A DNA stretch of 64,000 nt from Patescibacteria group bacterium (GTDB lineage: Bacteria; Patescibacteriota; WWE3; UBA101185; UBA10185). The position numbers and the translations under genes are program-made. Under the pieces are notes generated by a model. The model had not been told where the DNA came from. It worked only from the letters and a program-made list of their open reading frames with translations, and made no database searches. This document shows, in pieces, positions 1 through 45,770 of this stretch. The stretch is taken from assembly GCA_041658075.1 (NCBI GenBank), contig JBBAAW010000001.1:24778-88777 (forward strand), read 5' to 3'. Numbering within the stretch: the first letter of the stretch is position 1; every line of letters starts with the position of its first letter.

Positions 1-26
1 AGAAAAAAATTCAGAACGCTAAAACA

Positions 27-563
27 GTGCTTTTTATGGGCAACATTCAACCTCATCAGGGTATTGACTTGATGATCGACTCATTTGCGGAGGCGAGAAA
101 GGCCTATCCAAATTTGACATTGGAGATAGTTGGGAGGGGTCCTTATACAGAATCCGCACAACAAAAAGTGTCCGATGCCGGTCTGTCATCTTGTGTGATA
201 TTTCATGGTTTTGTGGACGATGAAAACAAGGTGGACGAAATTTATAAAAGATCTTTAGTTGGCATGGCACTATATCACCCAGAACTCTCAAGTTTCACAA
301 AGCTTTCTGACCCTGGAAAGATTAAGGACTACCTTTCTGCTGGTCTTCCTGTAATTACAACAAATGTTTTCCCTTTCTCCAAGGAGCTGGCGGAAAGCGG
401 CGCCGGGATTGTAGTCTCTTACGAAAAGGGTTCGGTTGTAGATGCCTTGAAGAGGATTCTTAATCCAAATAATGCAGAGGTTTTCAGAGGGGCTGCTTTA
501 AAACTTGCAAATAAATATCTTTGGGACCTAGTTCTTGATAGAACATTAGAACAGACTAATTAG
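27..563 (+). CDS. Glycosyltransferase family 1 (GT4), C-terminal part; probably 5'-truncated by the window edge
   Basis: C-terminal GT1 signature (E..GKIKDYLSAGLPVITT). The ORF runs from the window start. Confidence 0.55.
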   Translation: MLFMGNIQPHQGIDLMIDSFAEARKAYPNLTLEIVGRGPYTESAQQKVSDAGLSSCVIFHGFVDDENKVDEIYKRSLVGMALYHPELSSFTKLSDPGKIKDYLSAGLPVITTNVFPFSKELAESGAGIVVSYEKGSVVDALKRILNPNNAEVFRGAALKLANKYLWDLVLDRTLEQTN

Positions 564-1798
564 ATCTTGTTTTGTATGTTTTCAAATACTTTGCGAAAGT
601 TTTCTCGATAGTCATACTTTTCTGCTGCATCTGTGACCCCCTTGAGTAGATTATTATACCTGTTGTTATCACTTAGAACATCTACTAATGTTTTAGCTAT
701 ATCAACTGAATCAAAATTAGCAAGAACTCCGGCACCAAGATCCCGGAGCTCGTCTCCAAGGGACGGTCCGCCGTTAGTCATAATAACAGGTAGGCCGGCC
801 CGTAAATACTCTTTGGGTTTAGACACATCGGCATACATGGAAACATTCTCCTTCTCTGGTTTATATAGAGCCAGCCCGATTTTGGCTTGTCTAATAATTT
901 TTATGGCATCCTCAGTTTTTTCAACGAACCCTTTAAAGTCCACATTACTTTCTATGTTTAACTGCTTAGCCATTTCCTGGTATTTTTTGACCGCTGTTTC
1001 ACTTCCGCCCACAAAAGTAATTTTGACATTGGGCATTGCTTTTACCATAAGTGCTAAGGCTTCTAAAGCCACGTCTACCCCGGCGTTTGCGTCCAGTCGT
1101 CCTATATAGGCCAAGGAGTTTTCATTTCTTACAGTTTTCAAATTTTCAAGCGACTCATTTTTGTCTATAGTAACCGCCGGAGCGACAAAATATGATTTTG
1201 CTGTCAGTCCATTTTCTAAATCCCACTCCCGTGTTTTTTGATTGGCATACCAAACTACATCATTTTTTATGCCAACCTTTCTAAGTAATAGTTGGATAAG
1301 CACAAAGATTTTATCCACGAGTTTTATTATTGCGTTATCAGAATTAAGGTAGTACGGCTTGATTTTACGATCAAAGATGGGCAGTACATCACCGCTCATA
1401 AATACAGTTTTATGTACTCGACCTAGAATCTTATAGATCCACATTACAAAAGACCCAAAGCTAGTCTCTCCGATGCCTAAATCAAAAACCCCTCTATTTC
1501 TAGTGAGCTTGCAGGCGGCGTATGTGTTAAGAATATACTGCAGCATAAACGCCATGTAGGAAGGGATCTTAAGTGAAGACCTAAATTTTAATGTAGTCTT
1601 TTGCCCCACTTCATCTAGGACAAACGCCTCATATTCAATCCCGCTTTTAGATAGCGACACAGAGGGGAGCTTTATAACGGTGAGTTTATAATCAGTGTTT
1701 TCGGCAAGATACTTTGATAGAAAATTTAGTGGCGGTGTTCCATAGAAATTGACTACATACAATATTCTTATGTTTGTATTTAGATTACTTTTTTGCAT
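560..1798 (-). CDS. Glycosyltransferase family 1 (GT4)
   Basis: 412-aa ORF with C-terminal GT1 motifs (EYLRAGLPVIMTNGGPSLGDEL). Overlaps its neighbours by 4 and 14 nt. Confidence 0.75.
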   Translation of the reverse strand: MQKSNLNTNIRILYVVNFYGTPPLNFLSKYLAENTDYKLTVIKLPSVSLSKSGIEYEAFVLDEVGQKTTLKFRSSLKIPSYMAFMLQYILNTYAACKLTRNRGVFDLGIGETSFGSFVMWIYKILGRVHKTVFMSGDVLPIFDRKIKPYYLNSDNAIIKLVDKIFVLIQLLLRKVGIKNDVVWYANQKTREWDLENGLTAKSYFVAPAVTIDKNESLENLKTVRNENSLAYIGRLDANAGVDVALEALALMVKAMPNVKITFVGGSETAVKKYQEMAKQLNIESNVDFKGFVEKTEDAIKIIRQAKIGLALYKPEKENVSMYADVSKPKEYLRAGLPVIMTNGGPSLGDELRDLGAGVLANFDSVDIAKTLVDVLSDNNRYNNLLKGVTDAAEKYDYRENFRKVFENIQNKI

Positions 1799-2396
1799 CC
1801 ATCACCATGTAAATTTCTGCCGCTCCACCTACTAAATAACACCAGAATCTTTCAAACAATTCGGGCGACAAATTAATTAGAAAGTTCACCCCCAAGATTA
1901 TTGGTTTTAGTATTAATCCTGCCAGTGGAGGCCAGTCGGGGGCAACAATATACTTCATGTACCATTCCTCATTAGGCCAGGTATAGAAATACCTGATTTT
2001 ACGTGTGACAATGTTGAATCGCGCCCCAGAATAGCCCCATTTTTTGTAATCCCGTTTGGCGTCGAAAATATCAAAGCAGTATATTGAATAAGCTCTTTTA
2101 TGTGTAATGTCGCCCCAGGCATATAAGCTGCTAAAATGCGGAACTCTAAGATATAATCGACCCTTAGGTTTAAGTATTCTGTAAACTTCTTCAATAACTC
2201 TTACTGGATCATCCAAGTGTTCTAATACATGGTACATGTGGATTTCGTCAGCATAATTGTCCGTAAAAGGATATGGTGTTTGGTTCAAATCATGAACTAT
2301 GTCCACGGTATCTTTTTTTATTATATCTACACCTATTGAGCCTGGGATTCTTGAATTATTACAACCTAGATTTAATATTACCTTGCTCATGTTCAC
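1785..2396 (-). CDS. Class I SAM-dependent methyltransferase (Methyltransf_11-like)
   Basis: ILNLGCNN...VDI motif I region and YHVLEHLDDP motif typical of type-11 methyltransferases. Confidence 0.6.
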   Translation of the reverse strand: MNMSKVILNLGCNNSRIPGSIGVDIIKKDTVDIVHDLNQTPYPFTDNYADEIHMYHVLEHLDDPVRVIEEVYRILKPKGRLYLRVPHFSSLYAWGDITHKRAYSIYCFDIFDAKRDYKKWGYSGARFNIVTRKIRYFYTWPNEEWYMKYIVAPDWPPLAGLILKPIILGVNFLINLSPELFERFWCYLVGGAAEIYMVMDAKK

Positions 2397-2400
2397 GATT

Positions 2401-3516
2401 CTATATCAAGCTAACCGACCTGTACAGGTTATTAAGTAATCTACTTTTATCGTTTTCCTTTGCCCAATTAAGCGCTTTATCTCTCATGTCAGAATAAAGG
2501 TTGGTGTCCGACATTAATCTTTCCAGACCTTCCGCAAGCTCTTTGACATTTTCGCAAAGTATTAACAAGCCTCTCTCGTAAGCCTCAACAGCTGTTGATA
2601 TATTTCTGTTGCACACAACGGGCAAACCCGATGCAGCGTATTCTCGAATTTTTAAAGAGTCGGCGTATTTTTCAAATGATTTTACGTTTTCGTACCAGGC
2701 TACACCGATATAAGATTTTGACATTATTTTTATGTTAGTTTGATAGTCAACAAGACCGTGTAATATTACTATATTTTCTAAATTACGCCGGCTTGCTTTT
2801 CCAATAACATTTAATTTTATTGACGGAAACTTTTCCTTTAACAACGACGTTAAATCCAGCAACATGTCGATTTCGGTGTCACTAATGTTAGATTTTGTAT
2901 AAACTAACTCGTAACGATCTTTCTCTTTTGGGTCTATACGCGCGGCATGTTCATAATCAGGGGAGTTTGGCAAGAATACTGCTCTATCCGGATTTTTAAC
3001 GCGTGGCTGTACAATTTCCCGCATGTTTTTGCTTACATATGTTACAAAAGATGCGTGAGCAATGGAGAAATAGTAAATTTTTCTATAGAAAGCATCAAGC
3101 AATTTTATTTCAAATCGACATTCTGAAAAATCTACGGCATGAAACTGCACAGGCGTTTTTCTCAGGAGACTAACGACATAAGCTGACACAAAGTTGAGTG
3201 GATCTACGGCAATAATTAGGTCAATTTTCCCATACGAGAGAGTTTTAAAAATATTAAACACTATTTCGATTGGCCACCTGATTACGCCGGAAAATGGGAT
3301 TTTGTACTCCCGGATTTGTTCTCCGTTTTTTATTCTTGAGCTGTGTACTCCGGCAAGCGGATGCTCAATAAATATTACTTCAAATCCTGTATTCTCGAGA
3401 AAGGAGGTAACATAGTCTATTCCTCCTGGTTTGATTCCCGTTGCCGTGAATATTCTGTGTACAAGGATAACTACTTTTTTTCTTGTTGTTGGTGTTGTCA
3501 TAATGTCTTGTTCCAA
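2401..3516 (-). CDS. Glycosyltransferase family 1 (GT4)
   Basis: C-terminal GT1 domain (KIREYAASGLPVVCNRN). Confidence 0.7.
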   Translation of the reverse strand: MEQDIMTTPTTRKKVVILVHRIFTATGIKPGGIDYVTSFLENTGFEVIFIEHPLAGVHSSRIKNGEQIREYKIPFSGVIRWPIEIVFNIFKTLSYGKIDLIIAVDPLNFVSAYVVSLLRKTPVQFHAVDFSECRFEIKLLDAFYRKIYYFSIAHASFVTYVSKNMREIVQPRVKNPDRAVFLPNSPDYEHAARIDPKEKDRYELVYTKSNISDTEIDMLLDLTSLLKEKFPSIKLNVIGKASRRNLENIVILHGLVDYQTNIKIMSKSYIGVAWYENVKSFEKYADSLKIREYAASGLPVVCNRNISTAVEAYERGLLILCENVKELAEGLERLMSDTNLYSDMRDKALNWAKENDKSRLLNNLYRSVSLI

Positions 3517-5270
3517 ACTTCGAGCAGGAACATTCTCCAGAGTAAATATTCCTTTTGCATTTTTATGGGTCCAAAACAGTTAAAATCTAATGAACTTTCA
3601 AGAGTTTTCCTTCCTACGATACCAGATGTTAATGAGTCCGCACCCAATATATAAGATCTTACTTTGTCGATATTGTTAGTTAATACATCAAACATTGGTA
3701 GCATAAATCCCCGCTTTTTTCTTGTGGTTACATCAGACGGAAGGTATTTTTCGGCTACTTTTCTCAATATGTATTTTTCATTTGAACCATTCATACTGAA
3801 TGTCTCACCTTTTATCTTGTATTTATTTGGAAGACTAAATGCGTACTCCACGATTCGATGGTCCAAATAGGGAACTCTAGCCTCAACGGATGCGGACATT
3901 GTTGCCTTGTCTACCTTCATAAGAAGGTGGTTTGGGAGCTGTATATTTACCTCAACCGAAGAGATGGTTCTAAAAACATCATCTTGCTTGTTTTGCTTGA
4001 AAATTGAATTCCAGTAGGATATGTACCTTGGTGTTTTAAAGGAGATATTTCTTGATATTGCATAGTAGTAGGCAGTCGCTTTTAAAGGTGTGGGTAGAAT
4101 AGAAAAAGGAAGCTTTGAAAGCCCAAACCACGAATAACCTCCAAATATTTCATCCGACCCCTCACCCAAAAGAATAACCGTGATGCCTTGCCGCTTTAAT
4201 TCTTTACAAAGTATCGCTGTAGATATCACCCCCCCGTCAAAAGTACCCATGTCATCAAATATCGGGGCGTAACTCTCAATATTATTGATTATGTTTTTAG
4301 TGTCAATAAACACTTCGTGGTGATCTGTTCCTAAATACTCAGCAACTTTTGCCGCATTCTGACTTTCATTGAATTTATGATCGAACCTCGCGGTATATGT
4401 TTTTATCTTATTACTCGTTGAGTTCTGGGCATACGCAGCTATTAATGACGAATCCAGTCCTCCAGACAACAGTATTCCCACAGGCACATCGGAGACCATG
4501 TGCTCCATAACAGATGTCTTTAGCAAGTCATCCAGTTTTTCCACTGCTTCTTCGAACGTATCTTTACTGTTTTCATTTATTCGAGGTAAGGACCAATACC
4601 TTCTATTAGTTATCTGTTTGGACTTTGCCTCCCATTTTAAATAACAACCGGGTTCCACCTTTTTGATATTTTTAAACAAAGTGTTTATTCGATCCGGTAG
4701 AAACATGAACCCGAGTAATAGTTCAACTTTGTCGCGATCAACATTTTCTTTCAGACTATAGTCAGGTACCGCTTTAAAAGCTTTTACTTCACTTGAAAAG
4801 AAAAGGCAACCCTCTTTATTTAAGTAATAGAGGGGTTTTATTCCAATTCTGTCCCTAACTAAAAACGCCGTCTCTTTTTTATAGTCGTATAAAGCAATGG
4901 CGAACATCCCCCTAAGTTTTTCAAAAACCCCCTCGCCCCATTCTCTATAACCATGCAGAATTACTTCCGTATCGGACTCGGATTTAAATTGATAGCCTTT
5001 TCCCGCCAGCTCTTTTTTAAGATCTTTAAAGTTATATATTTCCCCGTTTTGACAAACCGCAACCGATTTATCCATGTTTTGCATGGGCATTCTACCTTTT
5101 TCAGAAAGATCAATAATACTTAATCTTTTAGACCCCAAGGAGATTTTTCTATCAAAGTCTTCCAGAATACCCTGGTCGTCCGGTCCTCTATGGTGAATCA
5201 AGTCCAGCATATTTTGAGTAACGCCACGATACTTTTGATTCACATTTATTATTCCGGCAATTCCACACAT
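3498..5270 (-). CDS. asnB: Asparagine synthase (glutamine-hydrolysing)-family amidotransferase, likely amidating a sugar carboxylate
   Basis: N-terminal MCGIAGI (Cys2 nucleophile), SGGLDSS PP-loop, 590 aa. Lies inside a glycan locus. Confidence 0.85.
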   Translation of the reverse strand: MCGIAGIINVNQKYRGVTQNMLDLIHHRGPDDQGILEDFDRKISLGSKRLSIIDLSEKGRMPMQNMDKSVAVCQNGEIYNFKDLKKELAGKGYQFKSESDTEVILHGYREWGEGVFEKLRGMFAIALYDYKKETAFLVRDRIGIKPLYYLNKEGCLFFSSEVKAFKAVPDYSLKENVDRDKVELLLGFMFLPDRINTLFKNIKKVEPGCYLKWEAKSKQITNRRYWSLPRINENSKDTFEEAVEKLDDLLKTSVMEHMVSDVPVGILLSGGLDSSLIAAYAQNSTSNKIKTYTARFDHKFNESQNAAKVAEYLGTDHHEVFIDTKNIINNIESYAPIFDDMGTFDGGVISTAILCKELKRQGITVILLGEGSDEIFGGYSWFGLSKLPFSILPTPLKATAYYYAISRNISFKTPRYISYWNSIFKQNKQDDVFRTISSVEVNIQLPNHLLMKVDKATMSASVEARVPYLDHRIVEYAFSLPNKYKIKGETFSMNGSNEKYILRKVAEKYLPSDVTTRKKRGFMLPMFDVLTNNIDKVRSYILGADSLTSGIVGRKTLESSLDFNCFGPIKMQKEYLLWRMFLLEVWNKTL

Positions 5271-5271
5271 G

Positions 5272-6219
5272 TTATTTACTTGCCTCCACCTTTACCATTG
5301 GCCAGAACATGGGCAAGTTTTCTGCCATCCACGTAACAACATTTCTGACTATTGGATTCTTTATATATTCAAATACTAACCTTGTTTTAAAGTGGCTTAC
5401 AACGACTTTTCTAAAGCCCGCCTGTTTATGTAACCTTATTAAGTTCGACGAAGTGAAGGAAAGTTCATACCCAAACTTCATATGTCGCGATTTTAGCACT
5501 TTGATGTGAATGAATTCCGCTAGCTGTTTTAGCATCGGTACGTTTGGAATATTGCCCCACATTTGCCTATAAGTAAGCGATCCTAGATTTAGATAGGGAA
5601 CTGTATTAAAGGTTTTTCCATTGTCTTTTAGCACTCTATACATTTCGGAAACGGCCTTTGAAGTGTCCTTAAAGTGTTCTAGTACGCCACCGCCATAAAT
5701 TAGATCAACACACGAGCTGCTTAGGGGCATATACTTAATGTCGCCATGAATTAAAAGGTAGTTATCTATCCCTTCTTGATCCAGCAGTTTTTGGGCCAAC
5801 ATTAATGCTTCAAGCGAAAAATCCACCCCAATGACAAGCTTGACCTCCCGAGCTATTTGACTGGCAAAAAACATTGGTCCGCAACCGATTTCTAAGAAAA
5901 CCTTATTTTTGTTTAGGGTTTCATTTTCTGTTAACTGCGGATAGACATAGGAAAAATCCTCAGTGACGTACGCTTGAAGGCGCTCCTTTATATAGTGACT
6001 CTCTAGGTTTGAATAATATTGGTTCCATTTAGCTATTGAGAGGTCCAGATCCTTTTCTGCAGAGTTTAAAAAGCTATAAATTTTACCAATTTTTATATAC
6101 TTCTTTTCAATATTGCACTTGGCACATCTTAGGAATTCTTTTCCCTCGTCAAAAAGTTGACTATGACAGTATGGGCAGGCTATTAAAGTGTTCTTCACTG
6201 AAGTAGGCTTCTGTTCCAT
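5272..6219 (-). CDS. SAM-dependent methyltransferase with N-terminal zinc-ribbon (CxxC...CxxC)
   Basis: CPYCHS...CAKCN zinc ribbon. LEIGCGPMFFASQIAREV motif I, VIGVDFS motif II. Confidence 0.65.
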   Translation of the reverse strand: MEQKPTSVKNTLIACPYCHSQLFDEGKEFLRCAKCNIEKKYIKIGKIYSFLNSAEKDLDLSIAKWNQYYSNLESHYIKERLQAYVTEDFSYVYPQLTENETLNKNKVFLEIGCGPMFFASQIAREVKLVIGVDFSLEALMLAQKLLDQEGIDNYLLIHGDIKYMPLSSSCVDLIYGGGVLEHFKDTSKAVSEMYRVLKDNGKTFNTVPYLNLGSLTYRQMWGNIPNVPMLKQLAEFIHIKVLKSRHMKFGYELSFTSSNLIRLHKQAGFRKVVVSHFKTRLVFEYIKNPIVRNVVTWMAENLPMFWPMVKVEASK

Positions 6220-7265
6220 TCTATGGTTCTTTTTAAACCTTCTTTTAACGACACTTTGGGACTATACTTTAGCAGTTTCTCGGCCTTTTCAATGTTGGGG
6301 TGAACCCTGGAAGGTGCGTCCACAACGTGGCTTTTATCTGAGTTTTCCTTTACACTCACACCCTCCTTTATTCCGCACAGCTCGTGAATTATTTCTGCTA
6401 GATGTTTTATAGTAACTTCCTCTTTATTATTGGCCACATTAACCGGATCCGCATTAAGGTTTGAAAACAGCAAACGGAAAAATAAAACCGTGGCATCTGA
6501 GACATAACAATAGCACCTTGTATCCAGTCCCTTGTTGAGCATTTGAATGGGTTTCTTTTCGAGTCCGGACTTCATAAATTCGGCCATGACTCTTCTATCT
6601 CCCACCTTTAGCCCAGGACCGTATACAATAAATGGTCTGGCAATCTTAATGGGGACACCGAATTTTTTAAAGTAGATATTACATAATGTTTCGCTTAATC
6701 TTTTAGATTCGGCGTAGCAGGCACGAGGCGCTAAGGGGGAAACGTTTCCGTTATATGTTTCTGGTGTTGGAATATTTTCTGGTGTTGGATTTCCGTAAAT
6801 TTCACCGGAACTCATGTAAAGGATACTTGAAACCTTATGCTCTTTAGAGTATTCCAGAATCCATCTAATACCCTTAACATTAACATCCAGGGTTCCAAGA
6901 GGGTCGCTCTCAAAAAAAGCTGGTGCAGATCTACCGGCGGCATGAACTATATAATCAACTTTCCTCTTTGTTTCGTAAGGATTTATAGAATCGTGCTTCA
7001 CAAACATTACATCTTTTCTTCCCAATAGATAACCCAATCTCCCGTTTTTATCCATTCCTGACCTTTGCAAACCTATGACTTTAGCAGGCTCTTTTTTTGG
7101 ATTTTTGTCGTTAAAATATAAGATGGTTTCAACCAGGTAGCTGGCGAGTAATCCCTCCGGACCTGTAATCAGAAAGGTCTTACCAAGAATCTTTTCTTTT
7201 TCACTTTTTAACTCGTTGTAAATTTCTTCTAAATCTTTGCGAATTATTTCTGACGCTTTTTGCAT
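6195..7265 (-). CDS. NAD-dependent epimerase/dehydratase (extended SDR) acting on a nucleotide sugar
   Basis: Rossmann fold LITGPEGLLASYL. Catalytic Y..ESK-like motif (YAESKRLSE). Confidence 0.75.
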   Translation of the reverse strand: MQKASEIIRKDLEEIYNELKSEKEKILGKTFLITGPEGLLASYLVETILYFNDKNPKKEPAKVIGLQRSGMDKNGRLGYLLGRKDVMFVKHDSINPYETKRKVDYIVHAAGRSAPAFFESDPLGTLDVNVKGIRWILEYSKEHKVSSILYMSSGEIYGNPTPENIPTPETYNGNVSPLAPRACYAESKRLSETLCNIYFKKFGVPIKIARPFIVYGPGLKVGDRRVMAEFMKSGLEKKPIQMLNKGLDTRCYCYVSDATVLFFRLLFSNLNADPVNVANNKEEVTIKHLAEIIHELCGIKEGVSVKENSDKSHVVDAPSRVHPNIEKAEKLLKYSPKVSLKEGLKRTIEWNRSLLQ

Positions 7266-13150: not shown

Positions 13151-13209
13151 AATAAAGGAAAAGTCTAATTTTCTCAATTTGTATGCACATTATTACAACC
13201 CTATAGTAT

Positions 13210-13238
13210 TTGACGATATAGACTTTTTGGCGTAAAAT
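13210..13238 (+). promoter_or_regulatory. Sigma70-type promoter TTGACG-17nt-TAAAAT, followed by SD AGAGGTG, driving the GC-rich ORF
   Basis: Near-consensus -35 and -10 with a 17-nt spacer, read directly from the sequence. SD lies 5 nt before the ATG at 13289. Confidence 0.5.
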
Positions 13239-37637: not shown

Positions 37638-38840
37638 TTACTTAACAGGGGTATTTTTTAAGGCAAAGTCGTACACTTTTTCCATTTCCTTAGCCTTTTC
37701 CATCCACGAGTAAAGTCCCACAATCTTATTTTGATCTACATAGGTCTTATTTCCGTCAATAATTTCCATAATCTTTTGCGCTATATGTTTTGGTTCTAAA
37801 TTATCTAAGTAAAAAAGCCCGGTAATTTCTTCTTTGATTTTAAAACCTGAAACCAAGGCTGGAGTTCCACAAGAGAGACTCTGTAAAACGACTTTTGGCA
37901 AACCCTCAAATGACGACGGCAAAACAAAAATATTCGCTGCCTGAAAAGCAATGGCAGTTTCCGGATACGGGGTGTACCCAGCCTTTATAACACGGTTGTT
38001 TAGATTTTTATCCCTAACCATCGTACTAATTTTTGCCAAGTATTCCTTGTCGCCTGAACCTACCAAAAAAAGTTTGTAGAATGGCGGTAGAAATTCTAAA
38101 GCGTTAACCAGTAAGTGTATGTTTTTTCGCTCTGTCATGACCCCATGATTTAAAACAATAATATCGGTTGGATCAAGTCCAAGATCGCGATTGATTTTTT
38201 CTTTTTCTTCCTTACCTACGGTTTTAAAAAGATTTGTATTTACGCCAGTTTCGACTACAAAACATTTGTCCGGATCCGCGTTGTAATACTTTACAGCTTC
38301 GTCTTTATTTTGCTGACTTACGAAAACGCACGCCGATGCCGCTTTTACCGCCCATTTATCCGAACGTTCTGCCAAAGGCCAAGAAATGTATTTGGAATAA
38401 AGTTTAACTGCCGATCTTTTTTCTTCCAGCGCGCCCTGTCTGCCTGCCGTTGTATTATGAAAGTGTACTACTAAGGGTATTTTAAGTTCGTTAGACCAAG
38501 GAAATATCTTCTTTAGAAAGGCACGGTAGGCATATAGCCAAATACCAAAATGTCCGTGCGAGTGAATTAGATCTGGTTTGTTTTCAAAGCGCCAATATAG
38601 ATAGTATAAAAAAACCAGGGGGGAGATTAAAAGACTTAAAGTTGCCGGAACAGGCTCCCGGATAAAAGTTCTAAACTTGCAGTTGGGTAGTTTTTCTATT
38701 GGACCTGCAAAGGGCCACCGCCCGCAGAAGATATCAAATGTATACCCGTGTTTTAACTGGGCTTGGGTCATTTCATATGGTGCCGGCGAAAGCCCGCTCC
38801 AGGGCGGTGGCCAGTCATAAACTATTCGTAAAATCTTCAT
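37638..38840 (-). CDS. Glycosyltransferase family 1 (GT4)
   Basis: FEGLPKVVLQSLSCGTPALVS. Confidence 0.7.
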   Translation of the reverse strand: MKILRIVYDWPPPWSGLSPAPYEMTQAQLKHGYTFDIFCGRWPFAGPIEKLPNCKFRTFIREPVPATLSLLISPLVFLYYLYWRFENKPDLIHSHGHFGIWLYAYRAFLKKIFPWSNELKIPLVVHFHNTTAGRQGALEEKRSAVKLYSKYISWPLAERSDKWAVKAASACVFVSQQNKDEAVKYYNADPDKCFVVETGVNTNLFKTVGKEEKEKINRDLGLDPTDIIVLNHGVMTERKNIHLLVNALEFLPPFYKLFLVGSGDKEYLAKISTMVRDKNLNNRVIKAGYTPYPETAIAFQAANIFVLPSSFEGLPKVVLQSLSCGTPALVSGFKIKEEITGLFYLDNLEPKHIAQKIMEIIDGNKTYVDQNKIVGLYSWMEKAKEMEKVYDFALKNTPVK

Positions 38841-40021
38841 AGTATCTTTTCGTAACTGTCGATCATTTTATCCAAGGTAAACTCTTTTTCAGCTTTTATT
38901 CTACCATCTAATCCCATGCTTTTTGCTAATTCACGGTTTTGAACAAGTTCCAGGATTTTGCTTTTCAGGGTGTCGATATCTAACTTGGCTAAAAGGAACC
39001 CGTTTGATTTATTAGCTACCGCGTCTTTATTTCCACCCATATCGGTTGCAATAATTGGCAAACCGGCAAAACAAGCTTCTACCAGCGTCATGGGAAAACC
39101 TTCCACGCGTTTGGTTGGCAAAACAAAAACATCGTTGCAGGAGTACATTTCCACTGCTTTTTCATAAGGTAATTTTCCGTAAAAAAGTACCTTCTGGCTC
39201 ATTCTATATTGTCGGCTTAAACTTTTTAACTCTTCCAAAAACGGCCCATCTCCAATAATGTTCACAAAAATACCGTCAATATCTTTACACGCCAATAACA
39301 ACTCCCGAAGACCTTTTGACTCCTCGATTCGTCCAATGTATAAGACCTTAAACGGCTCGCCATCTTTATCGTCGTCCCAATTCTTGGGAGGAATTTTAGA
39401 TCCGTCAATTCCGTTATGAATAACGGTGATCTTTTTTTCCGGCGCAAAAGTTTCATTTATAATCGACTCTTTTACAGCGCTGGAAACCGCCACAATCTTA
39501 TTACAACCGTTAATGTATTGCCTTTGTCGGCCAAAATAATTTACCATGCCAAACGCTAAACTTTTGGCCGATTTAACTACATCGCCCGTATTTTTCGCGG
39601 AATTTAATAGTGTTTTCATCTCGCTGCCAATGGTTCCATGAGAAATTCCAACGATATTAATGCCCAGCTTGCGTTTTCTTTTTATGACTCCTAGACCTGC
39701 CGAACTTTGGCTAATTACCGCATCAAAAGGTTTTTCTTGGTGGAATTTGAGAAATTCCTGGTATGATTTATTGAACCAATTATTTTTGTCTATCGATGCC
39801 AGAAGCATGTGATACACGCACGGTACAAAAACATATTTGACCGTCGTGGCGGAACCCGCACTATCCATTGTCGTGGCGGTCTTATCCACCATAGCAGGGG
39901 AGAACATTACGATTTCGTGTCCCCGATTCGCCAAACCCTCACATAATACTTTGTTCTGTGTTTCGAGTCCGCCATAGCCTTTATTAAATGTTGTCGATTT
40001 TATAAAAACTGCAATTCTCAT
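38837..40021 (-). CDS. Glycosyltransferase family 1 (GT4)
   Basis: EGFPMTLVEACFAGLPIIATDMGG. Confidence 0.75.
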   Translation of the reverse strand: MRIAVFIKSTTFNKGYGGLETQNKVLCEGLANRGHEIVMFSPAMVDKTATTMDSAGSATTVKYVFVPCVYHMLLASIDKNNWFNKSYQEFLKFHQEKPFDAVISQSSAGLGVIKRKRKLGINIVGISHGTIGSEMKTLLNSAKNTGDVVKSAKSLAFGMVNYFGRQRQYINGCNKIVAVSSAVKESIINETFAPEKKITVIHNGIDGSKIPPKNWDDDKDGEPFKVLYIGRIEESKGLRELLLACKDIDGIFVNIIGDGPFLEELKSLSRQYRMSQKVLFYGKLPYEKAVEMYSCNDVFVLPTKRVEGFPMTLVEACFAGLPIIATDMGGNKDAVANKSNGFLLAKLDIDTLKSKILELVQNRELAKSMGLDGRIKAEKEFTLDKMIDSYEKIL

Positions 40022-41247
40022 ACTAATAAACTCTCCAATTGACCGATGTTATCGTAGATGTTAAACATCTTGATGGCTTTGGCGTAAGCGTTTTGGGATA
40101 ATTTGTTGGCGAGATCTTTATCCAGAAGCAACTTCTCGATGGCGTTAGCAATGGCTTGGGGATTTTTTTGTTCAATGATAATTCCTGTGACGCTATCCTC
40201 AATGAGATCGGTGATACCACCGGCGTCTGTGGAGACTATTGGAAGCCTAGCCATAGCCGCCTCGATAACCACCGTGGGCACGCCGTCCACATCACCTGCG
40301 CCGGTTTCAACACTAGGCAAAACAAAAATATCCGCTACTTTATAGTACTCCAGAACCTCTTTAAACGCTGTGCCTTTACCCTCGCCGTGAATAAAAACGA
40401 CATCCCCTAACCTCAAAACGTCGATCATTTTAACCAGCTCTTGGTACAAATCTCCTGGTCCTACCAGGTCAACCCTGTGCGCAAACCCTTTATCGCGTAG
40501 AATTTTACTAGCCTCAATCATGTATTTAAACCCCTTTTTCTCTACTAACCGCGTTCCCCCCAAAAAAATTGCTGGAACATCCCACTTAGGCATTTTGGGA
40601 GGACTTTCAAATATTTTAGAATCAATTCCATGATAGATAAGTTTGACTTTTGACTTGTCGACCTCGCCACCCGCTATTTCCAAAGCCTTCTTGTAAGCGT
40701 AAGAATTGCAAATGCTAACGAATATTGCAGATTCGATTTTTTGCGGAATCAGCTCACCTTCCATAAAAACATCGCGAGCGTGGGCGGAAATGCTAAAAGG
40801 TATGTCTAAAATGTGCGACGCTATAAGTGCGGTTGTTGACGGCCACGATAGAAAATGCGCGTGAATGTGTTGGGGTTTAAGATCGGCAATTGTCTTTGTG
40901 TACCCTAGGGATTTTAGAAGAAAGTACATTTTGGAAAAAAAGCTCCGATTAGGCAACTCTAGCGCCAATTTATAACATCGGGTAACTTCTTTTGGGCAAG
41001 TGATTACATAATAGAGTCCACCTAGAAAATCTGCTAATCTAAGTCGTTTATAGACAGTTTGCTTTAACACTTCTTCCGATGTACTGCCTGTGGCTTTGCT
41101 TAGAGATAAAACCGTGATGTCCAGATTGTCCCACTCAATCAGTTTTGATATTTCACGCTCAATAAAAGTCTCACTGATTCGAGGGAATTCAGATATAAAG
41201 TACAAAATCCGCTTTTTGGCACCTTCTTCCATGTGTGTATTATGCAA
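40018..41247 (-). CDS. Glycosyltransferase family 1 (GT4)
   Basis: GVPTVVIEAAMARLPIVSTDAGG. Confidence 0.75.
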   Translation of the reverse strand: MHNTHMEEGAKKRILYFISEFPRISETFIEREISKLIEWDNLDITVLSLSKATGSTSEEVLKQTVYKRLRLADFLGGLYYVITCPKEVTRCYKLALELPNRSFFSKMYFLLKSLGYTKTIADLKPQHIHAHFLSWPSTTALIASHILDIPFSISAHARDVFMEGELIPQKIESAIFVSICNSYAYKKALEIAGGEVDKSKVKLIYHGIDSKIFESPPKMPKWDVPAIFLGGTRLVEKKGFKYMIEASKILRDKGFAHRVDLVGPGDLYQELVKMIDVLRLGDVVFIHGEGKGTAFKEVLEYYKVADIFVLPSVETGAGDVDGVPTVVIEAAMARLPIVSTDAGGITDLIEDSVTGIIIEQKNPQAIANAIEKLLLDKDLANKLSQNAYAKAIKMFNIYDNIGQLESLLV

Positions 41248-41268: not shown

Positions 41269-42633
41269 CTACTTTCCGTTTCTCAAAATTGCCGTTGACA
41301 CTATATCTCCATCTTCGGTATAGCCGTTGGTGCGTTTGCCAACCGCAATATAAATAAAGCCCGCGCCTTCTACAGCTTTTTGATCAAGTAGGTTTCTAGC
41401 GTCAAACAATAGTACACCCTTCATAAGTTTTTTGGACTTGGCAAGATCGAGCGACTTAAACTCATTCCATTCTGTAAAGATGCACAAAGCATCTACACCT
41501 TCCAGAGCGTCGTACATGTCCTTGGAGTAATAAATACCATCATGACCTAAAACCTTTTTAGTGTTCTCCATGGCAGCAGGATCGTACACCCGTAGTTTAG
41601 CTCCGTGACCTCTAATCATGTGTATCATTTTAATAGCGCCCGATTCTCTAATGTCGTCCGTATCGCCCTTAAAGGCCAAGCCCAGTACCCCAAAAGTATA
41701 ACCCGATAAATTGTCGTCCATAGCTTTGGTGATTTTTTTCATGAAGTTGAATTTTTGGAGTTCGTTGACTTCCATAACGGAGCGCAGCAGTTTAAAGTCG
41801 TACGCCTGATCCGTGGAAGTTTTGTACAAAGCGGCTACATCTTTGGGGAAACAGCTTCCTCCATAACCCACACCTGTGGCGTTTAAAAAAGCCCGCCCAA
41901 TTCTTTTGTCCAAGCCCACACCTTCTGCTACCACCTGAACATTGGCGCCCGCTCGTTCGCAAAGCTGACCAATCTCGTTAATAAAAGAAATCTTAGTGGC
42001 AAGCAAAGCGTTGGAAGCGTATTTGATCATTTCCGCGCTTCGCAGGTCGCATTCCACTATAGGAGCATCAAAGTCTTTGTAGAGTTCCCTCATAACCTTT
42101 AACCCGCGTTCACTTTTTGCACCCACCACTATTCTATTAGTGTTTCTCATGTCCTCGATAGCCGTACCTTCGCGTAAAAATTCGGGATTGGAGACCACAT
42201 CAAATTCTGTACCCTTGGGCATATTTTCTTGCACGGCGTGCTCTATCCGCTCGTTTGTTCCAACCGGTACAGTGCTTTTTGTCACTATAACTTTATACCC
42301 GTTAAGATTCTGTCCTATTTCCTTTGCTACCGCCATAACGGCCGTAAGATCTGCAGCTCCCGTGTCACCTTGAGGAGTTCCCACGCAAATAAAAATAACA
42401 TTCGACTCTTTAACGCCTTCCGCAGTAGAGGTGGTAAATTTTAGTCGACCTTCTTTAACATTTTTTAAGACAATCTCATCAAGTCCGGGTTCATAAATAG
42501 GCATTACACCTTTTGTAATTTTGTCGATTTTCTCTTTATCTTTGTCTACACCGATCACTTGATTTCCAATATCAGAGAAAATCGCTGCCCCAACTAACCC
42601 AACATAACCTGTTCCAATAACACAAATTTTCAT
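41269..42633 (-). CDS. ugd: UDP-glucose 6-dehydrogenase
   Basis: MKICVIGTGYVGLV NAD site. GGSCFPKD catalytic Cys motif. 454 aa. Confidence 0.9.
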   Translation of the reverse strand: MKICVIGTGYVGLVGAAIFSDIGNQVIGVDKDKEKIDKITKGVMPIYEPGLDEIVLKNVKEGRLKFTTSTAEGVKESNVIFICVGTPQGDTGAADLTAVMAVAKEIGQNLNGYKVIVTKSTVPVGTNERIEHAVQENMPKGTEFDVVSNPEFLREGTAIEDMRNTNRIVVGAKSERGLKVMRELYKDFDAPIVECDLRSAEMIKYASNALLATKISFINEIGQLCERAGANVQVVAEGVGLDKRIGRAFLNATGVGYGGSCFPKDVAALYKTSTDQAYDFKLLRSVMEVNELQKFNFMKKITKAMDDNLSGYTFGVLGLAFKGDTDDIRESGAIKMIHMIRGHGAKLRVYDPAAMENTKKVLGHDGIYYSKDMYDALEGVDALCIFTEWNEFKSLDLAKSKKLMKGVLLFDARNLLDQKAVEGAGFIYIAVGKRTNGYTEDGDIVSTAILRNGK

Positions 42634-43409
42634 ATATATGCAACTTCGCGCTTTGGTAAAGCGTAAGCTCCCTTTAAGCCTAAAATTTTAATACGCAAAA
42701 CATCCCGTGCCATTTTATAAGAGTTAGCGAGGATGTTTAGACGGGTTGTTGGTACATAATTCCATTTTACAGGTATGTCTTTAATTTTATATCCCATTTG
42801 TCTGGCGCAGTATAAAACCTCCACATCAAAAGCACCAAAAAAAGGTCTGTCTATTTGAGGTAAATTGTCGCCGTATACTATCAGATGACTGAAGACTTTT
42901 CTGGCCACATCCCCTTTAAATAATTTAAATCCGCACTGTGTGTCTTGAAAGTCTAAGCCGATGACGGTTTTTACCAAAAGATTGAAAACTCTACCCATAA
43001 TATGTCTGTATAATGGTTCGTCCTGTCTTTCTGCCCCAATACCCTCACGGGAAGCTATGGCGATATCAAAGTCATTATCGTTTATCCATGTGGCAAGTCT
43101 CTTTAATTCTTCCAATGGGGTTGCCATATCGGCGTCCATCATTAAAACCATCTTGCCCGATGATTTTAACACGCCGGTTCTTATTCCTGCGGCCTTGCCT
43201 TTATGGACATTTTTTACGAGCTTTATTTCCGGGTGGTCTTTAGCGTATTCTTCAACAACCTCGGCAGTTTTATCTTTGGATCCGTCGTCCACCACAACAA
43301 TCTCAAACGCCGGTGCAAACTGATTCATAAAAGAAAGGGTTTGCGTTAATGTTTTAGTTATTCGCGATTCTTCGTTGTACGCGGAAATTACTATTGAATA
43401 GTCAATCAT
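42630..43409 (-). CDS. Glycosyltransferase family 2
   Basis: YSIVISAYNEESRI, VVDDGSKDKT, DADM. Confidence 0.75.
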   Translation of the reverse strand: MIDYSIVISAYNEESRITKTLTQTLSFMNQFAPAFEIVVVDDGSKDKTAEVVEEYAKDHPEIKLVKNVHKGKAAGIRTGVLKSSGKMVLMMDADMATPLEELKRLATWINDNDFDIAIASREGIGAERQDEPLYRHIMGRVFNLLVKTVIGLDFQDTQCGFKLFKGDVARKVFSHLIVYGDNLPQIDRPFFGAFDVEVLYCARQMGYKIKDIPVKWNYVPTTRLNILANSYKMARDVLRIKILGLKGAYALPKREVAYI

Positions 43410-43417: not shown

Positions 43418-44542
43418 TTATTGCATCCTTTTTCGCCAGATAATTCTACTATATATCATATAATTCCACACCAACCCAAATGCTACGCCAATTAAAAATC
43501 CCGCGTTGGCCACTACTGCTTTGTCGCCCAAGGCTTTAACAAAAAGGTCAACCAGCTGACTCCTAAACAAGATTGGAATGATGGATAACACAGTGTAGAC
43601 AACAAAAGTACCTAAGATTTTCACCAACCCGTTAATTCTTCTTTCTCCAAACGACCAGATATTATTTAAAGTAAAAGTGACCATTATAGCAATAAGTCCG
43701 GAGATTACGGCAGAAAGGGAAGAGTCAAAAAGTGTTACTCTAAAAACATTAAAAAGGGTAGCGTCGGTTATAAAGCCTGCTACGCCTACACACAAAAATT
43801 TCACCAGGTTTTTGTTTTCATTAATTCTTATGGAAAGTACGACTTTAAGCGAGTCAAGCGCGTTATTACTTTGCATTTTGGAGTCGCCCCTGTCGCGCAA
43901 ACCAAACTCAATGGGAACCTCCGCAACTTTGGCGTTTAATTTATACATTTTGTAGAGAAGGTCAATTTTGTAGGCAAAGCCTTTGGACCGAACAGACTCC
44001 AAATCAAGTCGATCCAGATAATTTTTTACGCGTGACGCTTTAAAGCCGGAAGTAAAATCAGAAACGTTGTATATACCCAAAACTATTTTGGAAAAGATGT
44101 TGCCTCCCACACTCCAAAATTTTCTATTTAAACCCCATTCTTTGGGGATAGAACCACCCTTGGTAAAGCGGGATCCTATTACATAGTCGTAACCCTGCTC
44201 TATTTTTTCTACAAAGCGGGGAATATCGTTGGGATTGTGCTGAAAGTCGGCGTCCATTTCTATTACGACATCTGGGTACAGATTTTGCAGGGCGTATTTA
44301 AAGGCGTAAATATAAGCTCCGCCCAGTCCGGATTTTTCTTTTTCCATTAACAGATGGACATTGGGGTGTTTTTGCGACAATTCTTTTACCGCCTCACCAG
44401 TCCTGTCTGGTGAGTTTCCGTCGACCACTAAAATATGACACTCGTGGTGGGGTATTTTGACAAATGCCTCCAAGATAGCAGGTATGACTTTTTTGATATT
44501 TTCTACCTCGTTATAGGTTGGTATAACAACAATAATTTTCAT
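43418..44542 (-). CDS. GT2 polyprenyl-phosphate glycosyltransferase (Dpm1/Ppm1-like) fused to a C-terminal GtrA-like membrane domain
   Basis: IIVVIPTYNEVENI, VDGNSPDRT. C-terminal 4-TM GtrA-like region (KFLCVGVAGFITD). Confidence 0.75.
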   Translation of the reverse strand: MKIIVVIPTYNEVENIKKVIPAILEAFVKIPHHECHILVVDGNSPDRTGEAVKELSQKHPNVHLLMEKEKSGLGGAYIYAFKYALQNLYPDVVIEMDADFQHNPNDIPRFVEKIEQGYDYVIGSRFTKGGSIPKEWGLNRKFWSVGGNIFSKIVLGIYNVSDFTSGFKASRVKNYLDRLDLESVRSKGFAYKIDLLYKMYKLNAKVAEVPIEFGLRDRGDSKMQSNNALDSLKVVLSIRINENKNLVKFLCVGVAGFITDATLFNVFRVTLFDSSLSAVISGLIAIMVTFTLNNIWSFGERRINGLVKILGTFVVYTVLSIIPILFRSQLVDLFVKALGDKAVVANAGFLIGVAFGLVWNYMIYSRIIWRKRMQ

Positions 44543-44796
44543 ATCAATGATATACTGACAAAAAGCATGGCAAAGACAAAAAGCGAGAGTGAAATGTACT
44601 CAAACATCACATGCCTGTTGAGTCTTTGCTCTAAAAGCCCGTGAATTATACCCCAAGAGCTATAAAAAACACAGCCGAAAAAAGCGCTTACCATTTGATA
44701 AGTGGGATTTTGGTAAAAGTATAGGAAAAAGAAAAAGCTAGACAAAAGCCCAAAAGCCAAAATTAAATAATGATATAAATGCGAGCTTCTATCCAT
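44539..44796 (-). CDS. Small membrane protein (2 TM), hypothetical
   Basis: 85-aa hydrophobic ORF overlapping its neighbour by 4 nt. Confidence 0.35.
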   Translation of the reverse strand: MDRSSHLYHYLILAFGLLSSFFFFLYFYQNPTYQMVSAFFGCVFYSSWGIIHGLLEQRLNRHVMFEYISLSLFVFAMLFVSISLI

Positions 44797-45699
44797 CTAA
44801 ATTATCCTTCCGGGTCCCAAGGAAAAATAAACCGCACTAATAGCAAAAATTAAAAAGAGCATATGGGCAAAAGAATGACCTGTAAATTTTAAGATAGCAT
44901 GTTTTCTTGAGTACCACATATCTAAAGCAAATAAAATAAAAACGAGCGATGCGAAGCTCACTAAAAATGTTTTGGTAGTGGAATATACGTTGACCCCATG
45001 GGGCGATGGCTGCGGCGGCACTTGGATGGCGGGGGCAGTTTTTTCCGTAGGTGTAGTATTGACGGTTGGTGCTGTAGCAGGGCGTGTTACGGCGTTTTGG
45101 TCGGCACCCTTAACCGCCACTTGTGCGGGCGCGCCACGGGTTTTTCCAAACATCTGTATTACTAAAGTAGTTTCGTAGTCGTCCAAAACGCCATTGATTA
45201 CCGCAAACCCAACATCGGTGTATTTATCGCTAATTAAATTTTCCCTATGTGACGGCGATTTATACCACGCATCCACCACATCCTTTGATGCGCCAAAGTT
45301 CTTAGCCAAATTCTCTCCTGCGTACAAGTAGTCGTAATCTTGTCCCACAATAAAACTCCACGGATCTGTTCCATCCGGGGCAACATGCGCCCAATAATTA
45401 TGTTTAAACATATACTCGGCTTTTTTTTGGGCGGCAGTAGTAAGCTTGGAATTTATTGTTAACCCACTCACACCAGCAGTCGATCTTTTATTATTGGTGT
45501 ATTTTAATAAGTCGCTAATATTTATATTGCTGGCATAACTTAATACACCCGGCAAAACGGCGGGAATTTCCTTAAAGAAAGTGAAAAAAGTCAAAAGGGT
45601 TAACGAATACAACAAAACGGCTTTACTTTGCAGTAGCGTGGCTCTTTTCTTATGTATTGGATGCGGAAGTATGTGGTGCTTTAAGCGTTTAATATGCAT
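44797..45699 (-). CDS. CAP (SCP/PR-1-like) domain protein with N-terminal TM, Pro/Thr-rich linker and C-terminal TM
   Basis: HNYWAHV...GENLA...AWYKSPSHRENL CAP motifs. Confidence 0.6.
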   Translation of the reverse strand: MHIKRLKHHILPHPIHKKRATLLQSKAVLLYSLTLLTFFTFFKEIPAVLPGVLSYASNINISDLLKYTNNKRSTAGVSGLTINSKLTTAAQKKAEYMFKHNYWAHVAPDGTDPWSFIVGQDYDYLYAGENLAKNFGASKDVVDAWYKSPSHRENLISDKYTDVGFAVINGVLDDYETTLVIQMFGKTRGAPAQVAVKGADQNAVTRPATAPTVNTTPTEKTAPAIQVPPQPSPHGVNVYSTTKTFLVSFASLVFILFALDMWYSRKHAILKFTGHSFAHMLFLIFAISAVYFSLGPGRII

Positions 45700-45770
45700 T
45701 GATTTTTATTATACACTTGCTTGCAATATTTTTGACACTCCTCTGACAATATGGTAGTGTACTACTTGGA

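Follow-up and report, generated by a model that had tools for sequence, protein, structure and literature searches.

Three-component glycosylation systems (GtrA/GtrB/Gtr*, ArnC/ArnT, CsbB/GtcA/YfhO, GacI/J/K/L and GT136) share a logic in which a polyprenyl-phosphate glycosyltransferase of family GT2, a flippase and a membrane glycosyltransferase of the GT-C fold act together. In GacI/J/K/L, a wall polysaccharide receives its side chain through a GT2, the Wzx-family flippase GacK, which serves a monophosphate donor, and a GT-C (10.1101/180810), and the Citrobacter GT136 system combines a MOP/Wzx- or MATE-family flippase for the monophosphate donor with a GT-C carrying a carbohydrate-binding module (CBM) (PMC11127046). 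Here we analysed a stretch of 64,000 nucleotides from a Patescibacteria group bacterium of the WWE3 lineage (assembly GCA_041658075.1, contig JBBAAW010000001.1, positions 24,778 to 88,777 of the forward strand), referred to below as the window, in which positions 1-45,700 are occupied by a glycosylation gene cluster. This cluster consists of two units, a lineage-conserved core of 20 genes that accounts for about half of the region and a patchily distributed accessory module. We consider it fairly probable that they form a two-part cell-envelope glycan locus whose product is assembled outside the cytoplasm from polyprenyl-phosphate sugars by GT-C enzymes.

The likeness to the three-component systems extends to a small membrane helper encoded beside the synthase (GacJ; here an open reading frame (ORF) of 85 aa) and to a GT-C with a CBM. 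However, each of the known systems attaches a single side-chain sugar with a single gene per type, whereas the conserved operon-like block described here combines four to five synthases with three candidate flippases and five to seven GT-C enzymes, and no separate backbone pathway is visible. In scale, the closest analogue is the mycobacterial and corynebacterial synthesis of lipomannan, lipoarabinomannan (LAM) and arabinogalactan (Ppm1, PimA/B, MptA/B, EmbA-C, AftA-D), in which cytoplasmic steps of family GT4 enzymes are likewise followed by extension on the outside by many GT-C enzymes using polyprenyl-phosphate sugars. In contrast to that system, the host belongs to an unrelated phylum, Wzx and UPF0104 proteins are present, and the sugars would be UDP-xylose (UDP-Xyl) and derivatives of GDP-4-keto-6-deoxymannose; no genes of the decaprenyl-phosphoarabinose pathway were noticed in the Pfam scans of the window. 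Archaeal S-layer N-glycosylation (AglJ/AglD, the Wzx-like flippase AglR, the GT-C AglS, and AglB) was compared for its Dol-P steps. It resembles the window locus in that AglJ and a haloarchaeal Dol-P-hexose transferase are among the best NCBIfam matches of the Dpm1-like GT2 proteins, in the STT3/AglB-like folds and in a DPMS-type synthase that matches an archaeal enzyme over its full length. It differs in that the scores are far under equivalog cutoffs, the host is bacterial, more GT-C enzymes are encoded here, and a sequon-recognising oligosaccharyltransferase (OST) of the WWDYG type is not demonstrated. With gmd, DegT, ugd, methyltransferases, an amidotransferase, GT4, GT2 and Wzx side by side, the gene content also recalls Wzx/Wzy O-antigen and capsule clusters, most of all in the accessory part, but Wzy, Wzz/PCP, WaaL, export genes and a phosphoglycosyltransferase were not detected, and GT-C enzymes and monophosphate synthases dominate. 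The mechanism class is known; what is new is its scale, its conservation in a reduced-genome lineage, the architecture of the locus and a GT-C family, here called AftD-like, that is invisible to annotation. Our literature search returned no description of the 20-gene locus, of Patescibacteria GT-C enzymes or of the AftD-like family.

Every ORF of positions 1-45,700 was run against Pfam, and NCBIfam profiles were also applied; start codons are longest-ORF starts throughout. The region holds 40 genes, most of them glycan-related, with 36 on the minus and four on the plus strand (ORF listing and Pfam scan), and the cluster continues past the left edge of the window, where it is cut. A previous sequence-only reading of this DNA had described a single co-directional supercluster of about 40 consecutive minus-strand genes separated by overlaps or gaps under 30 nt. 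This picture proved too simple: a plus-strand block of three genes (13289-17896) breaks the minus-strand run, the two units differ in their evolutionary behaviour, and the close spacing holds for 32 of the 39 junctions (overlapping or at most 30 nt) while the other seven span 43-415 nt. A seeming gap of 255 nt near 44.5 kb is occupied by the 85-aa membrane ORF (44539-44796). Within the 415-nt gap, promoter-like sites were not in excess and a few terminator-like hairpins were found; an Rfam scan for non-coding features returned two tRNAs only. The enzyme types listed by the earlier reading were right, but its counts of GT4 (at least seven) and Dpm1-type GT2 (at least eight) were inflated. Pfam finds five complete GT4 and the C-terminal half of a sixth (27-563, plus strand), as well as six GT2 above cutoff and a divergent, sub-cutoff seventh (11348-12292), only four GT2 being Dpm1/DPMS-like. 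The five to six GT-C enzymes that it had counted are present, namely four PMT_2 proteins, one DUF2079 protein and a sixth (14146-17523) recognised by fold only, which brings the number to six in the region and seven across the window. Pfam likewise bears out the two Wzx/MOP flippases (Polysacc_synt; 25171-26583 and 31818-33266), the UPF0104 protein (LPG_synthase_TM; 30958-31848) and the sugar-nucleotide genes, which comprise GDP-mannose 4,6-dehydratase (GMD), UDP-glucose 6-dehydrogenase (UGD), DegT, an AsnB-like amidotransferase and two further short-chain dehydrogenases/reductases (SDRs), one of which is identified as UDP-glucuronate decarboxylase (UXS) by its match to human UXS1. The other Pfam calls are a split transketolase, three S-adenosylmethionine (SAM) methyltransferases, a B12-radical SAM enzyme, a YdjM and a CAP protein. 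Since all paralogue pairs inside the window are at most 38% identical, none results from recent duplication.

The core (22,408-45,699) is a block of 20 genes on one strand, which we compared with L091, a related contig, and L092, a WWE3 genome. L091 keeps the order of all 20 window genes tested, with amino-acid identities of 56-86%, and L092 that of 17 full-length genes, with identities of 36-65%. A CAP gene heads the locus in both, and both have an ORF of 85-86 aa at the same position. In L092, UGD is only a fragment (3261-3499), UXS is absent and a methyltransferase (13655-14446) takes the place of the UPF0104 gene. The core is a lineage-conserved locus and not a variable O-antigen-like island. 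Its genes, in core order, are the following (TM, transmembrane).

44797-45699, minus strand: CAP/SCP-domain membrane protein with a Pro/Thr-rich linker, first core gene (Pfam CAP)
44539-44796, minus strand: 85-aa membrane ORF between the CAP and DPMS genes (ORF listing; position kept in relatives)
43418-44542, minus strand: predicted polyprenyl-phosphate hexose synthase, full-length and of the type of P. furiosus DPMS, with a GT2 domain and a domain of four TM helices (match to 5mlz)
42630-43409, minus strand: short ArnC/Dpm1-like GT2 (ArnC, DPMS and GtrB as best PDB matches; NCBIfam)
41269-42633, minus strand: UDP-glucose 6-dehydrogenase family protein, UGD (Pfam, three domains)
37638-38840, 38837-40021 and 40018-41247, minus strand: three successive GT4 (Pfam; orthologues in L091 and L092)
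36091-37620, minus strand: PMT_2-type GT-C (Pfam)
35411-36094, minus strand: short Dpm1-like GT2 (AglJ model; ArnC and DPMS as best PDB matches)
33263-35401, minus strand: DUF2079 GT-C with a C-terminal beta-sandwich, core anchor gene (Pfam DUF2079; structure model and Foldseek)
31818-33266, minus strand: MOP/Wzx-family flippase (Pfam Polysacc_synt/Polysacc_synt_3)
30958-31848, minus strand: UPF0104/MprF-type flippase-like membrane protein (LPG_synthase_TM, 158 bits; NCBIfam 'flippase-like domain')
26462-28168, 28172-29359 and 29433-30992, minus strand: three successive PMT_2-type GT-C (Pfam PMT_2 and PMT above cutoff)
25171-26583, minus strand: MOP/Wzx-family flippase (Pfam Polysacc_synt/Polysacc_synt_3)
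24399-25202, minus strand: short Dpm1-like GT2, candidate polyprenyl-phosphate sugar synthase (alignment with P. furiosus DPMS; NCBIfam)
23415-24371, minus strand: UXS, UDP-glucuronate decarboxylase (E 9e-120 to human UXS1)
22408-23418, minus strand: membrane GT2 (Glyco_trans_2_3), final core gene (Pfam; orthologues in L091 and L092)

For the predicted synthase 43418-44542, homology lends good support to a specificity for polyprenyl phosphate. This protein aligns over its full length with the solved Dol-P-Man synthase of P. furiosus, 5mlz (residues 1-369 against 23-372, E 2e-41), carries 'MDADFQH' in its DXD region opposite 'MDADLQH' of 5mlz, and has the DPMS architecture of a GT2 with DXD, interface helices and four TM helices in a single chain. 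The Pfam domain GtrA_DPMS_TM, which spans residues 248-369, had been read as a fusion of a GT2 to GtrA; given the full-length match to the P. furiosus enzyme, it is the normal membrane domain of an ordinary DPMS and does not indicate a flippase fusion. The short GT2 proteins without TM helices (24399-25202, 35411-36094 and 42630-43409) group together at a mutual identity of 24-30%, and their best matches over most of the catalytic domain are ArnC, DPMS, GtrB, AglJ and PpgS. Among them, 24399-25202 aligns with the P. furiosus synthase (residues 1-201 against 23-218, E 7e-13; best NCBIfam matches PgfS, ArnC and PpgS), and 35411-36094 reaches 115 bits with the NCBIfam AglJ model over residues 3-222. 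By homology, the DPMS-type enzyme and this trio would fill the place of the GT2 that makes the polyprenyl-monophosphate sugar in three-component systems. The GT2 proteins 17991-19097 and 22408-23418 have no NCBIfam profile of the polyprenyl-phosphate type, and 11348-12292 matches AglJ at E 3.7e-10 over a partial stretch and Pfam GT2 at 19 bits against a cutoff of 23.3. For the best-conserved GT4, the PDB sequence search yielded no informative relative. The 85-aa ORF 44539-44796 could be a small synthase helper or anchor, by analogy with GacJ and DPM3.

The proposed transfer of sugars on the outer face would fall to the GT-C enzymes. According to its AlphaFold2 (AF2) model (pLDDT 83, pTM 0.79), the DUF2079 protein 33263-35401 is a GT-C: Foldseek matches the model to STT3A, yeast STT3, DPY19, EmbC and PglB at E values of 7e-7 to 9e-4, and its C-terminal beta-sandwich matches the Wzt C-terminal domain. 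More than 380 close homologues of this protein were found, mostly in WWE3, and its closest named relative is from a WWE3 genome, at 81% identity. The literature search returned no mention of DUF2079. As in the GT-C component of three-component systems, acidic motifs follow the first TM helix (TM1) in all four PMT_2 proteins, in the DUF2079 protein and in the 1,125-aa protein 14146-17523. A 'DE' motif of the kind found in PMT/GT39 domains lies at residues 21-22 of 28172-29359 and at residues 34-35 of 29433-30992. As flippases, the two MOP/Wzx proteins and the UPF0104 protein are candidates.

For the accessory module (1-21,992), we used L082, a WWE3 genome, as well as L086 and L087 for comparison. 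Its genes are as follows.

27-563, plus strand: C-terminal half of a GT4 whose gene begins left of the window, convergent with the next gene (Pfam Glycos_transf_1, Glyco_trans_1_4)
560-1798, minus strand: GT4, last gene of the accessory sugar module (Pfam; orthologues 40-71% identical in L082, L086 and L087)
1785-2396, minus strand: SAM methyltransferase (Pfam Methyltransf_11; orthologues 78-81% identical)
2401-3516, minus strand: GT4 (Pfam; orthologues in L082, L086 and L087)
3498-5270, minus strand: AsnB-like glutamine amidotransferase (Pfam Asn_synthase and GATase_7; orthologues)
5272-6219, minus strand: SAM methyltransferase (Pfam)
6195-7265, minus strand: UXS-like SDR, paralogue of UDP-glucuronate decarboxylase (Pfam Epimerase; E 5e-45 to human UXS1)
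7244-8305 and 8160-9029, minus strand: split transketolase-like enzyme dependent on thiamine diphosphate (ThDP), two genes (Pfam Transket_pyr, Transketolase_C, Transketolase_N)
9026-10195, minus strand: DegT-family sugar aminotransferase (Pfam)
10199-11254, minus strand: GDP-mannose 4,6-dehydratase, gmd (Pfam GDP_Man_Dehyd, 494 bits; NCBI name)
11348-12292, minus strand: divergent GT2-like protein, sub-cutoff in Pfam (partial NCBIfam AglJ match)
12336-13310, minus strand: SAM methyltransferase (Pfam)
13289-14032, plus strand: 247-aa ORF without Pfam or NCBIfam match, 53% GC (GC profile; gene call in contig L085)
14146-17523, plus strand: AftD-like GT-C of 1,125 aa, assigned by fold (AF2, Foldseek)
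17516-17896, plus strand: 126-aa membrane protein beside the AftD-like gene (TM prediction; small ORF at a like position in L082, L086 and L087)
17991-19097, minus strand: GT2, not of the polyprenyl-phosphate type (Pfam; NCBIfam profile)
19084-20847, minus strand: B12-binding radical SAM enzyme (Pfam; best NCBIfam match HpnJ, 170 bits against a cutoff of 578)
20765-21529, minus strand: 254-aa ORF without family match, up to 56% GC (GC profile)
21573-21992, minus strand: YdjM-family membrane protein, candidate member of the cluster only by position (Pfam)

In all four accessory loci examined, the AftD-like gene adjoins the same unusual-sugar cassette. The order in L082 is SDR, methyltransferase, AsnB-like, GT4, methyltransferase and GT4, followed by the AftD-like gene and the small TM ORF; L087 has this order without the second methyltransferase, and L086 holds the same genes. 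In L082, all of these genes run in one direction; in the window and in L086, the relative closest to it, the GT-C pair is transcribed divergently from the sugar genes. Across these loci, the AftD-like proteins are 34-65% identical, with the L086 protein at 65%, and the 126-aa partner is 22-29% identical to its counterparts, being conserved in position and weakly in sequence. The ThDP enzyme YerE attaches a two-carbon branch to a keto-sugar (PMC4753412), and the split ThDP enzyme 7244-9029 probably does likewise. In its place, L082 encodes a protein with acetolactate-synthase-like, YerE-like TPP_enzyme_N/M/C domains (1312-3120), which looks like a non-orthologous replacement. A probable role of the AsnB-like protein 3498-5270 is the amidation of a sugar carboxylate. 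The probable product of the accessory module is a branched sugar that bears amino, methyl and amide groups; its exact identity is a guess. The ORFs 13289-14032 and 20765-21529 stand out by 53-56% GC against ~39-41% in the rest of the cluster; neither has a tblastn match in L082, L086 or L087, and they may have been acquired recently within the accessory half. In 17991-21529, the succession of a GT2, an HpnJ-like radical SAM enzyme and the 254-aa protein loosely recalls HpnI/J/K of hopanoid side-chain synthesis, with an HpnJ score far below its cutoff.

Neither Pfam nor NCBIfam recognises the 1,125-aa product of 14146-17523, even at E<=5. It has about 9-10 N-terminal TM helices, a soluble region of ~640 aa and one C-terminal TM helix. 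In the AF2 model, built on 18 homologues (pLDDT 79, pTM 0.74), the N-terminal TM helices lead into a soluble alpha/beta domain; a helical bundle and a CBM-like beta-sandwich come next, and the C-terminal TM helix serves as an anchor. Foldseek places mycobacterial AftD first (E 6e-14), followed by STT3, PglB, AglB and DPY19; sequence identity to AftD is ~10%. The modelled GT-C membrane and soluble domains superimpose on AftD, and the predicted beta-sandwich matches CBMs. The residue pair G66-D67 does not vary within the family; it lies in the first outside loop, just behind the first long TM helix, where GT-C enzymes have their catalytic acid. AftD itself has three CBMs, which it is proposed to use for binding its glycan acceptor, and five C-terminal TM helices (TM12-16) that bind acyl carrier protein (10.1101/2019.12.22.885152). 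The window protein shares with AftD the GT-C membrane domain, the soluble alpha/beta domain, the CBM-like beta-sandwich and the C-terminal return to the membrane. In contrast, it has one clear CBM-like domain and one C-terminal TM helix and lacks the set of three CBMs and the bundle that binds acyl carrier protein; nor is it recognised by the AftD family hidden Markov model (HMM), PF11847. Judged from its model, it is a divergent AftD-like GT-C outside the AftD family as defined by HMM. Its modelled CBM-like domain favours a glycan acceptor, as does, more weakly, the predicted beta-sandwich of the DUF2079 protein.

The idea that the AftD-like protein belongs to a rare family was dropped, as a word-indexed search had found 19 homologues and an exhaustive profile search found 6,958 clusters (50% identity, E<=1e-3), with 1,358 clusters at E<=1e-30. 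Members have either the full-length form or a shorter form of ~750 aa. A distant member, P0214 (E 6e-119 to the family profile), passes PF11847 GT-C_AftD with 30.1 bits against a cutoff of 26, and other members give weak CBM_4_9 matches. By sequence, neither the profile of this family nor that of the DUF2079 family found a solved structure in the PDB, and the two families are unrelated at the profile level (hhalign probability 1%). Neither the window nor the related loci yielded AftD-like paralogues. L082 (13882-18737) and L087 (13813-21212) carry, downstream of the AftD-like gene, ORFs of 995-999, ~535 and 455 aa together with ORFs of 80-84 aa; these have no Pfam match, are not AftD-like paralogues by HMM and are absent from the window.

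The pathway that we propose would proceed in the following steps: (i) UGD and UXS would supply UDP-glucuronic acid (UDP-GlcA) and UDP-Xyl; (ii) the three core GT4 and the membrane GT2 would carry out cytoplasmic steps with nucleotide sugars on a lipid-linked primer; (iii) the DPMS-type synthase and the three short Dpm1-like GT2 would charge polyprenyl phosphate with single sugars; (iv) the two MOP/Wzx proteins and the UPF0104 protein would carry lipid-linked intermediates across the membrane; (v) the five core GT-C enzymes (four PMT_2 and DUF2079) would transfer sugars to the growing glycan on the outer face. The accessory route might start from GDP-4-keto-6-deoxymannose or a UDP-4-keto-pentose and would employ GMD, DegT, the UXS-like SDR, the split ThDP enzyme, the AsnB-like protein, three SAM methyltransferases and the B12-radical SAM enzyme, with two to three GT4 and two GT2 as transferases. 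The AftD-like GT-C and its small partner would then probably attach the accessory sugar, or a short oligosaccharide, to a glycan acceptor on the outside. In this scheme, the lipid carrier, each sugar, the flippase cargo, the pairing of synthases with GT-C enzymes and the acceptor are proposed from homology and predicted fold.

Lipid-carrier glycosylation outside the membrane is suggested by the combination of synthases, candidate flippases and many GT-C enzymes without Wzy, Wzz or WaaL, and this part of the sequence-only reading stands, with smaller enzyme counts. By Pfam and NCBIfam, no Wzy_C or Wzz match occurs among the ORFs of the 64-kb window; a divergent Wzy can evade HMMs, and every polytopic membrane protein of the window was assigned to something other than Wzy or Wzz. 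The same profiles detected no WaaL, ABC exporter or LCP-type ligase in the window. Several points weigh against the proposed pathway. An initiating phosphoglycosyltransferase of the WecA/WbaP/PglC type (no Bac_transf or Glycos_transf_4 match in 64 kb; it could be encoded elsewhere in the genome), a polyprenyl-phosphate synthase, a ligase and an identifiable acceptor are missing from the window, so that the pathway as seen, with its left end cut, is incomplete. MOP/Wzx proteins classically flip polyprenyl-diphosphate oligosaccharides, which fits en-bloc transfer, and the PMT_2 family includes true protein O-mannosyltransferases. All NCBIfam matches of the window GT2 proteins are far under curated cutoffs, and for the three short GT2 we only infer polyprenyl-phosphate specificity, from best-match resemblance. 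Finally, the degraded UGD and the absent UXS of L092 indicate that the branch to UDP-GlcA and UDP-Xyl is dispensable in some lineages.

Polyprenyl-phosphate sugars also serve protein O-glycosylation, by Ppm1/Pmt in actinobacteria and PgfS/PgfM in streptococci. It is conceivable, though in our judgement unlikely, that the Dpm1-like synthases feed PMT_2 GT-C enzymes acting on Ser/Thr of secreted, S-layer or pilin proteins. The PMT_2 and PMT matches above Pfam cutoffs and the DE-type motifs after TM1 of 28172-29359 and 29433-30992 are consistent with this explanation, as is the presence of PgfS among the best NCBIfam matches of four GT2 proteins. However, PMT_2 is broad and also covers ArnT-like lipid and glycan transferases, and five to six GT-C, three GT4, two Wzx and UGD/UXS exceed the needs of any known O-mannosylation system. 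The beta-sandwiches of the AftD-like and DUF2079 proteins, moreover, point to glycan acceptors. In favour of O-glycosylation, homologues of the TM-TPR protein 54978-56657 carry the JGI name protein O-mannosyl-transferase. The CAP protein with its P/T-rich linker, which heads the locus in the relatives as well, could be a substrate, but the Pro/Thr-rich composition is lost in L092 and the linker was rejected as a glycosylation target. O-glycosylation by a subset of the enzymes is possible alongside assembly of an envelope glycan from polyprenyl-phosphate sugars.

Rather improbable, in our view, is an en-bloc pathway in which an oligosaccharide is assembled on polyprenyl diphosphate by the GT4 and GT2 enzymes, Wzx flips it and one or more GT-C enzymes act as OST, ligase or polymerase in the manner of PglB and AglB. 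The initiating enzyme, and possibly a divergent Wzy, would then lie elsewhere in the genome; genes for initiating enzymes are frequently located away from clusters of this kind. This pathway would be suited by the two Wzx-family genes and the five to six cytoplasmic GT4, both modelled GT-C enzymes strongly match STT3, PglB and AglB in fold, and no polyprenyl-phosphate GT2 lies within 10 kb of the accessory module in the WWE3 relatives. On the other hand, four to five synthases of polyprenyl-monophosphate sugars would have no role in it, and no Wzy_C, Wzz or Bac_transf/WecA-type match was found anywhere in the 64 kb. It is for the accessory module in particular that en-bloc transfer has to be kept in mind.

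The strand switch at 13.3-17.9 kb and the two ORFs of 53-56% GC could hint at an artefact of assembly or at glycosylation genes that are unrelated and adjacent by chance. This reading is extremely improbable and was refuted by independent contigs and conserved synteny: an ENA contig (L085, 93 kb) and three Logan contigs (L001, L088 and L089) hold the same genes in the same order as the matching parts of the window and extend across the strand switches as well as the border to the housekeeping genes, tblastn against independent contigs gives 100% identity for window genes 27 to 28168, the divergent arrangement recurs in L086, and the core block is collinear in two other genomes. Because the independently assembled contigs agree in gene order, the contig is not chimeric in the parts that could be compared.

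Past the housekeeping genes, the window holds a second, small set of glycan genes on the plus strand (51511-58808), which includes the following.

51511-53527, plus strand: SDR and full-length ArnC/GtrB-like polyprenyl-phosphate GT2 (Pfam; ArnC model, 156 bits over residues 21-338)
54978-56657, plus strand: PMT_2-like protein with 11 TM helices and TPR repeats, which makes seven GT-C in the window (TPR by Pfam)

The GT2 of the first entry (52505-53527) has two predicted C-terminal TM helices, and the TM-TPR protein is encoded downstream of it. Homologues of the latter carry PMT_2, a 'SADD' motif follows its TM1, and its closest named relative is from a WWE3 genome (63% identity). The set also encodes an SGNH/GDSL hydrolase and an Acyl_transf_3 protein, a possible pair for glycan O-acetylation, with tRNA-Ser and tRNA-Pro genes interspersed. 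Two separate YbaK/aminoacyl-tRNA editing-domain proteins and an aldehyde:ferredoxin oxidoreductase lie close together on the plus strand (54275-54775, 58997-60727 and 60734-61222). For the lysyl-tRNA synthetase, the nearest species-representative genomes are labelled 'Saccharibacteria' (L002, 63%) and 'Gammaproteobacteria' (L003, 54%); as other genes of the window show affinity to WWE3, these labels of metagenome-assembled genomes look unreliable.

The earlier reading had found glycosylation on this scale notable in a reduced genome. This is not new: glycosyltransferases were reported in 2013 to be abundant 'particularly in the WWE3 genome', for which polysaccharides, glycoproteins or a glycosylated S-layer were proposed (Kantor et al. 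2013, PMC3812714), and multiple Dol-P-mannosyltransferase copies are known from other members of the candidate phyla radiation, Peribacteria and a saccharibacterium (PMC4736985, PMC6031116). Our results refine the published glycosyltransferase richness of WWE3 and do not overturn it. As a speculation to which we attach little probability, WWE3/Katanobacteria could owe their main glycopolymer, anchored in the wall or membrane, to the core block as an ancestral pathway. Such a polymer would be put together outside the membrane almost wholly from polyprenyl-phosphate sugars and would match arabinogalactan and LAM as a counterpart of independent, non-actinobacterial origin, with the AftD-like proteins as a large uncharacterised GT-C family. 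If so, the polymer would contribute structurally to the envelope of a lineage in which the first genome was reported not to contain a complete, identifiable pathway for peptidoglycan (PMC3812714).

In summary, standard domain annotation misses a large GT-C family, with consequences for how many glycosyltransferases are counted in uncultivated bacteria. As Patescibacteria are attached to other cells in life, it is through their surface that they meet the host; to our knowledge, almost nothing is known of its composition. From the locus described here, a concrete set of genes conserved in the lineage, one can predict a glycan that is built from lipid-phosphate sugars outside the membrane, and the locus offers named candidates for function in the DPMS-type synthase, the three short Dpm1-like GT2 and the DUF2079 and AftD-like GT-C enzymes.

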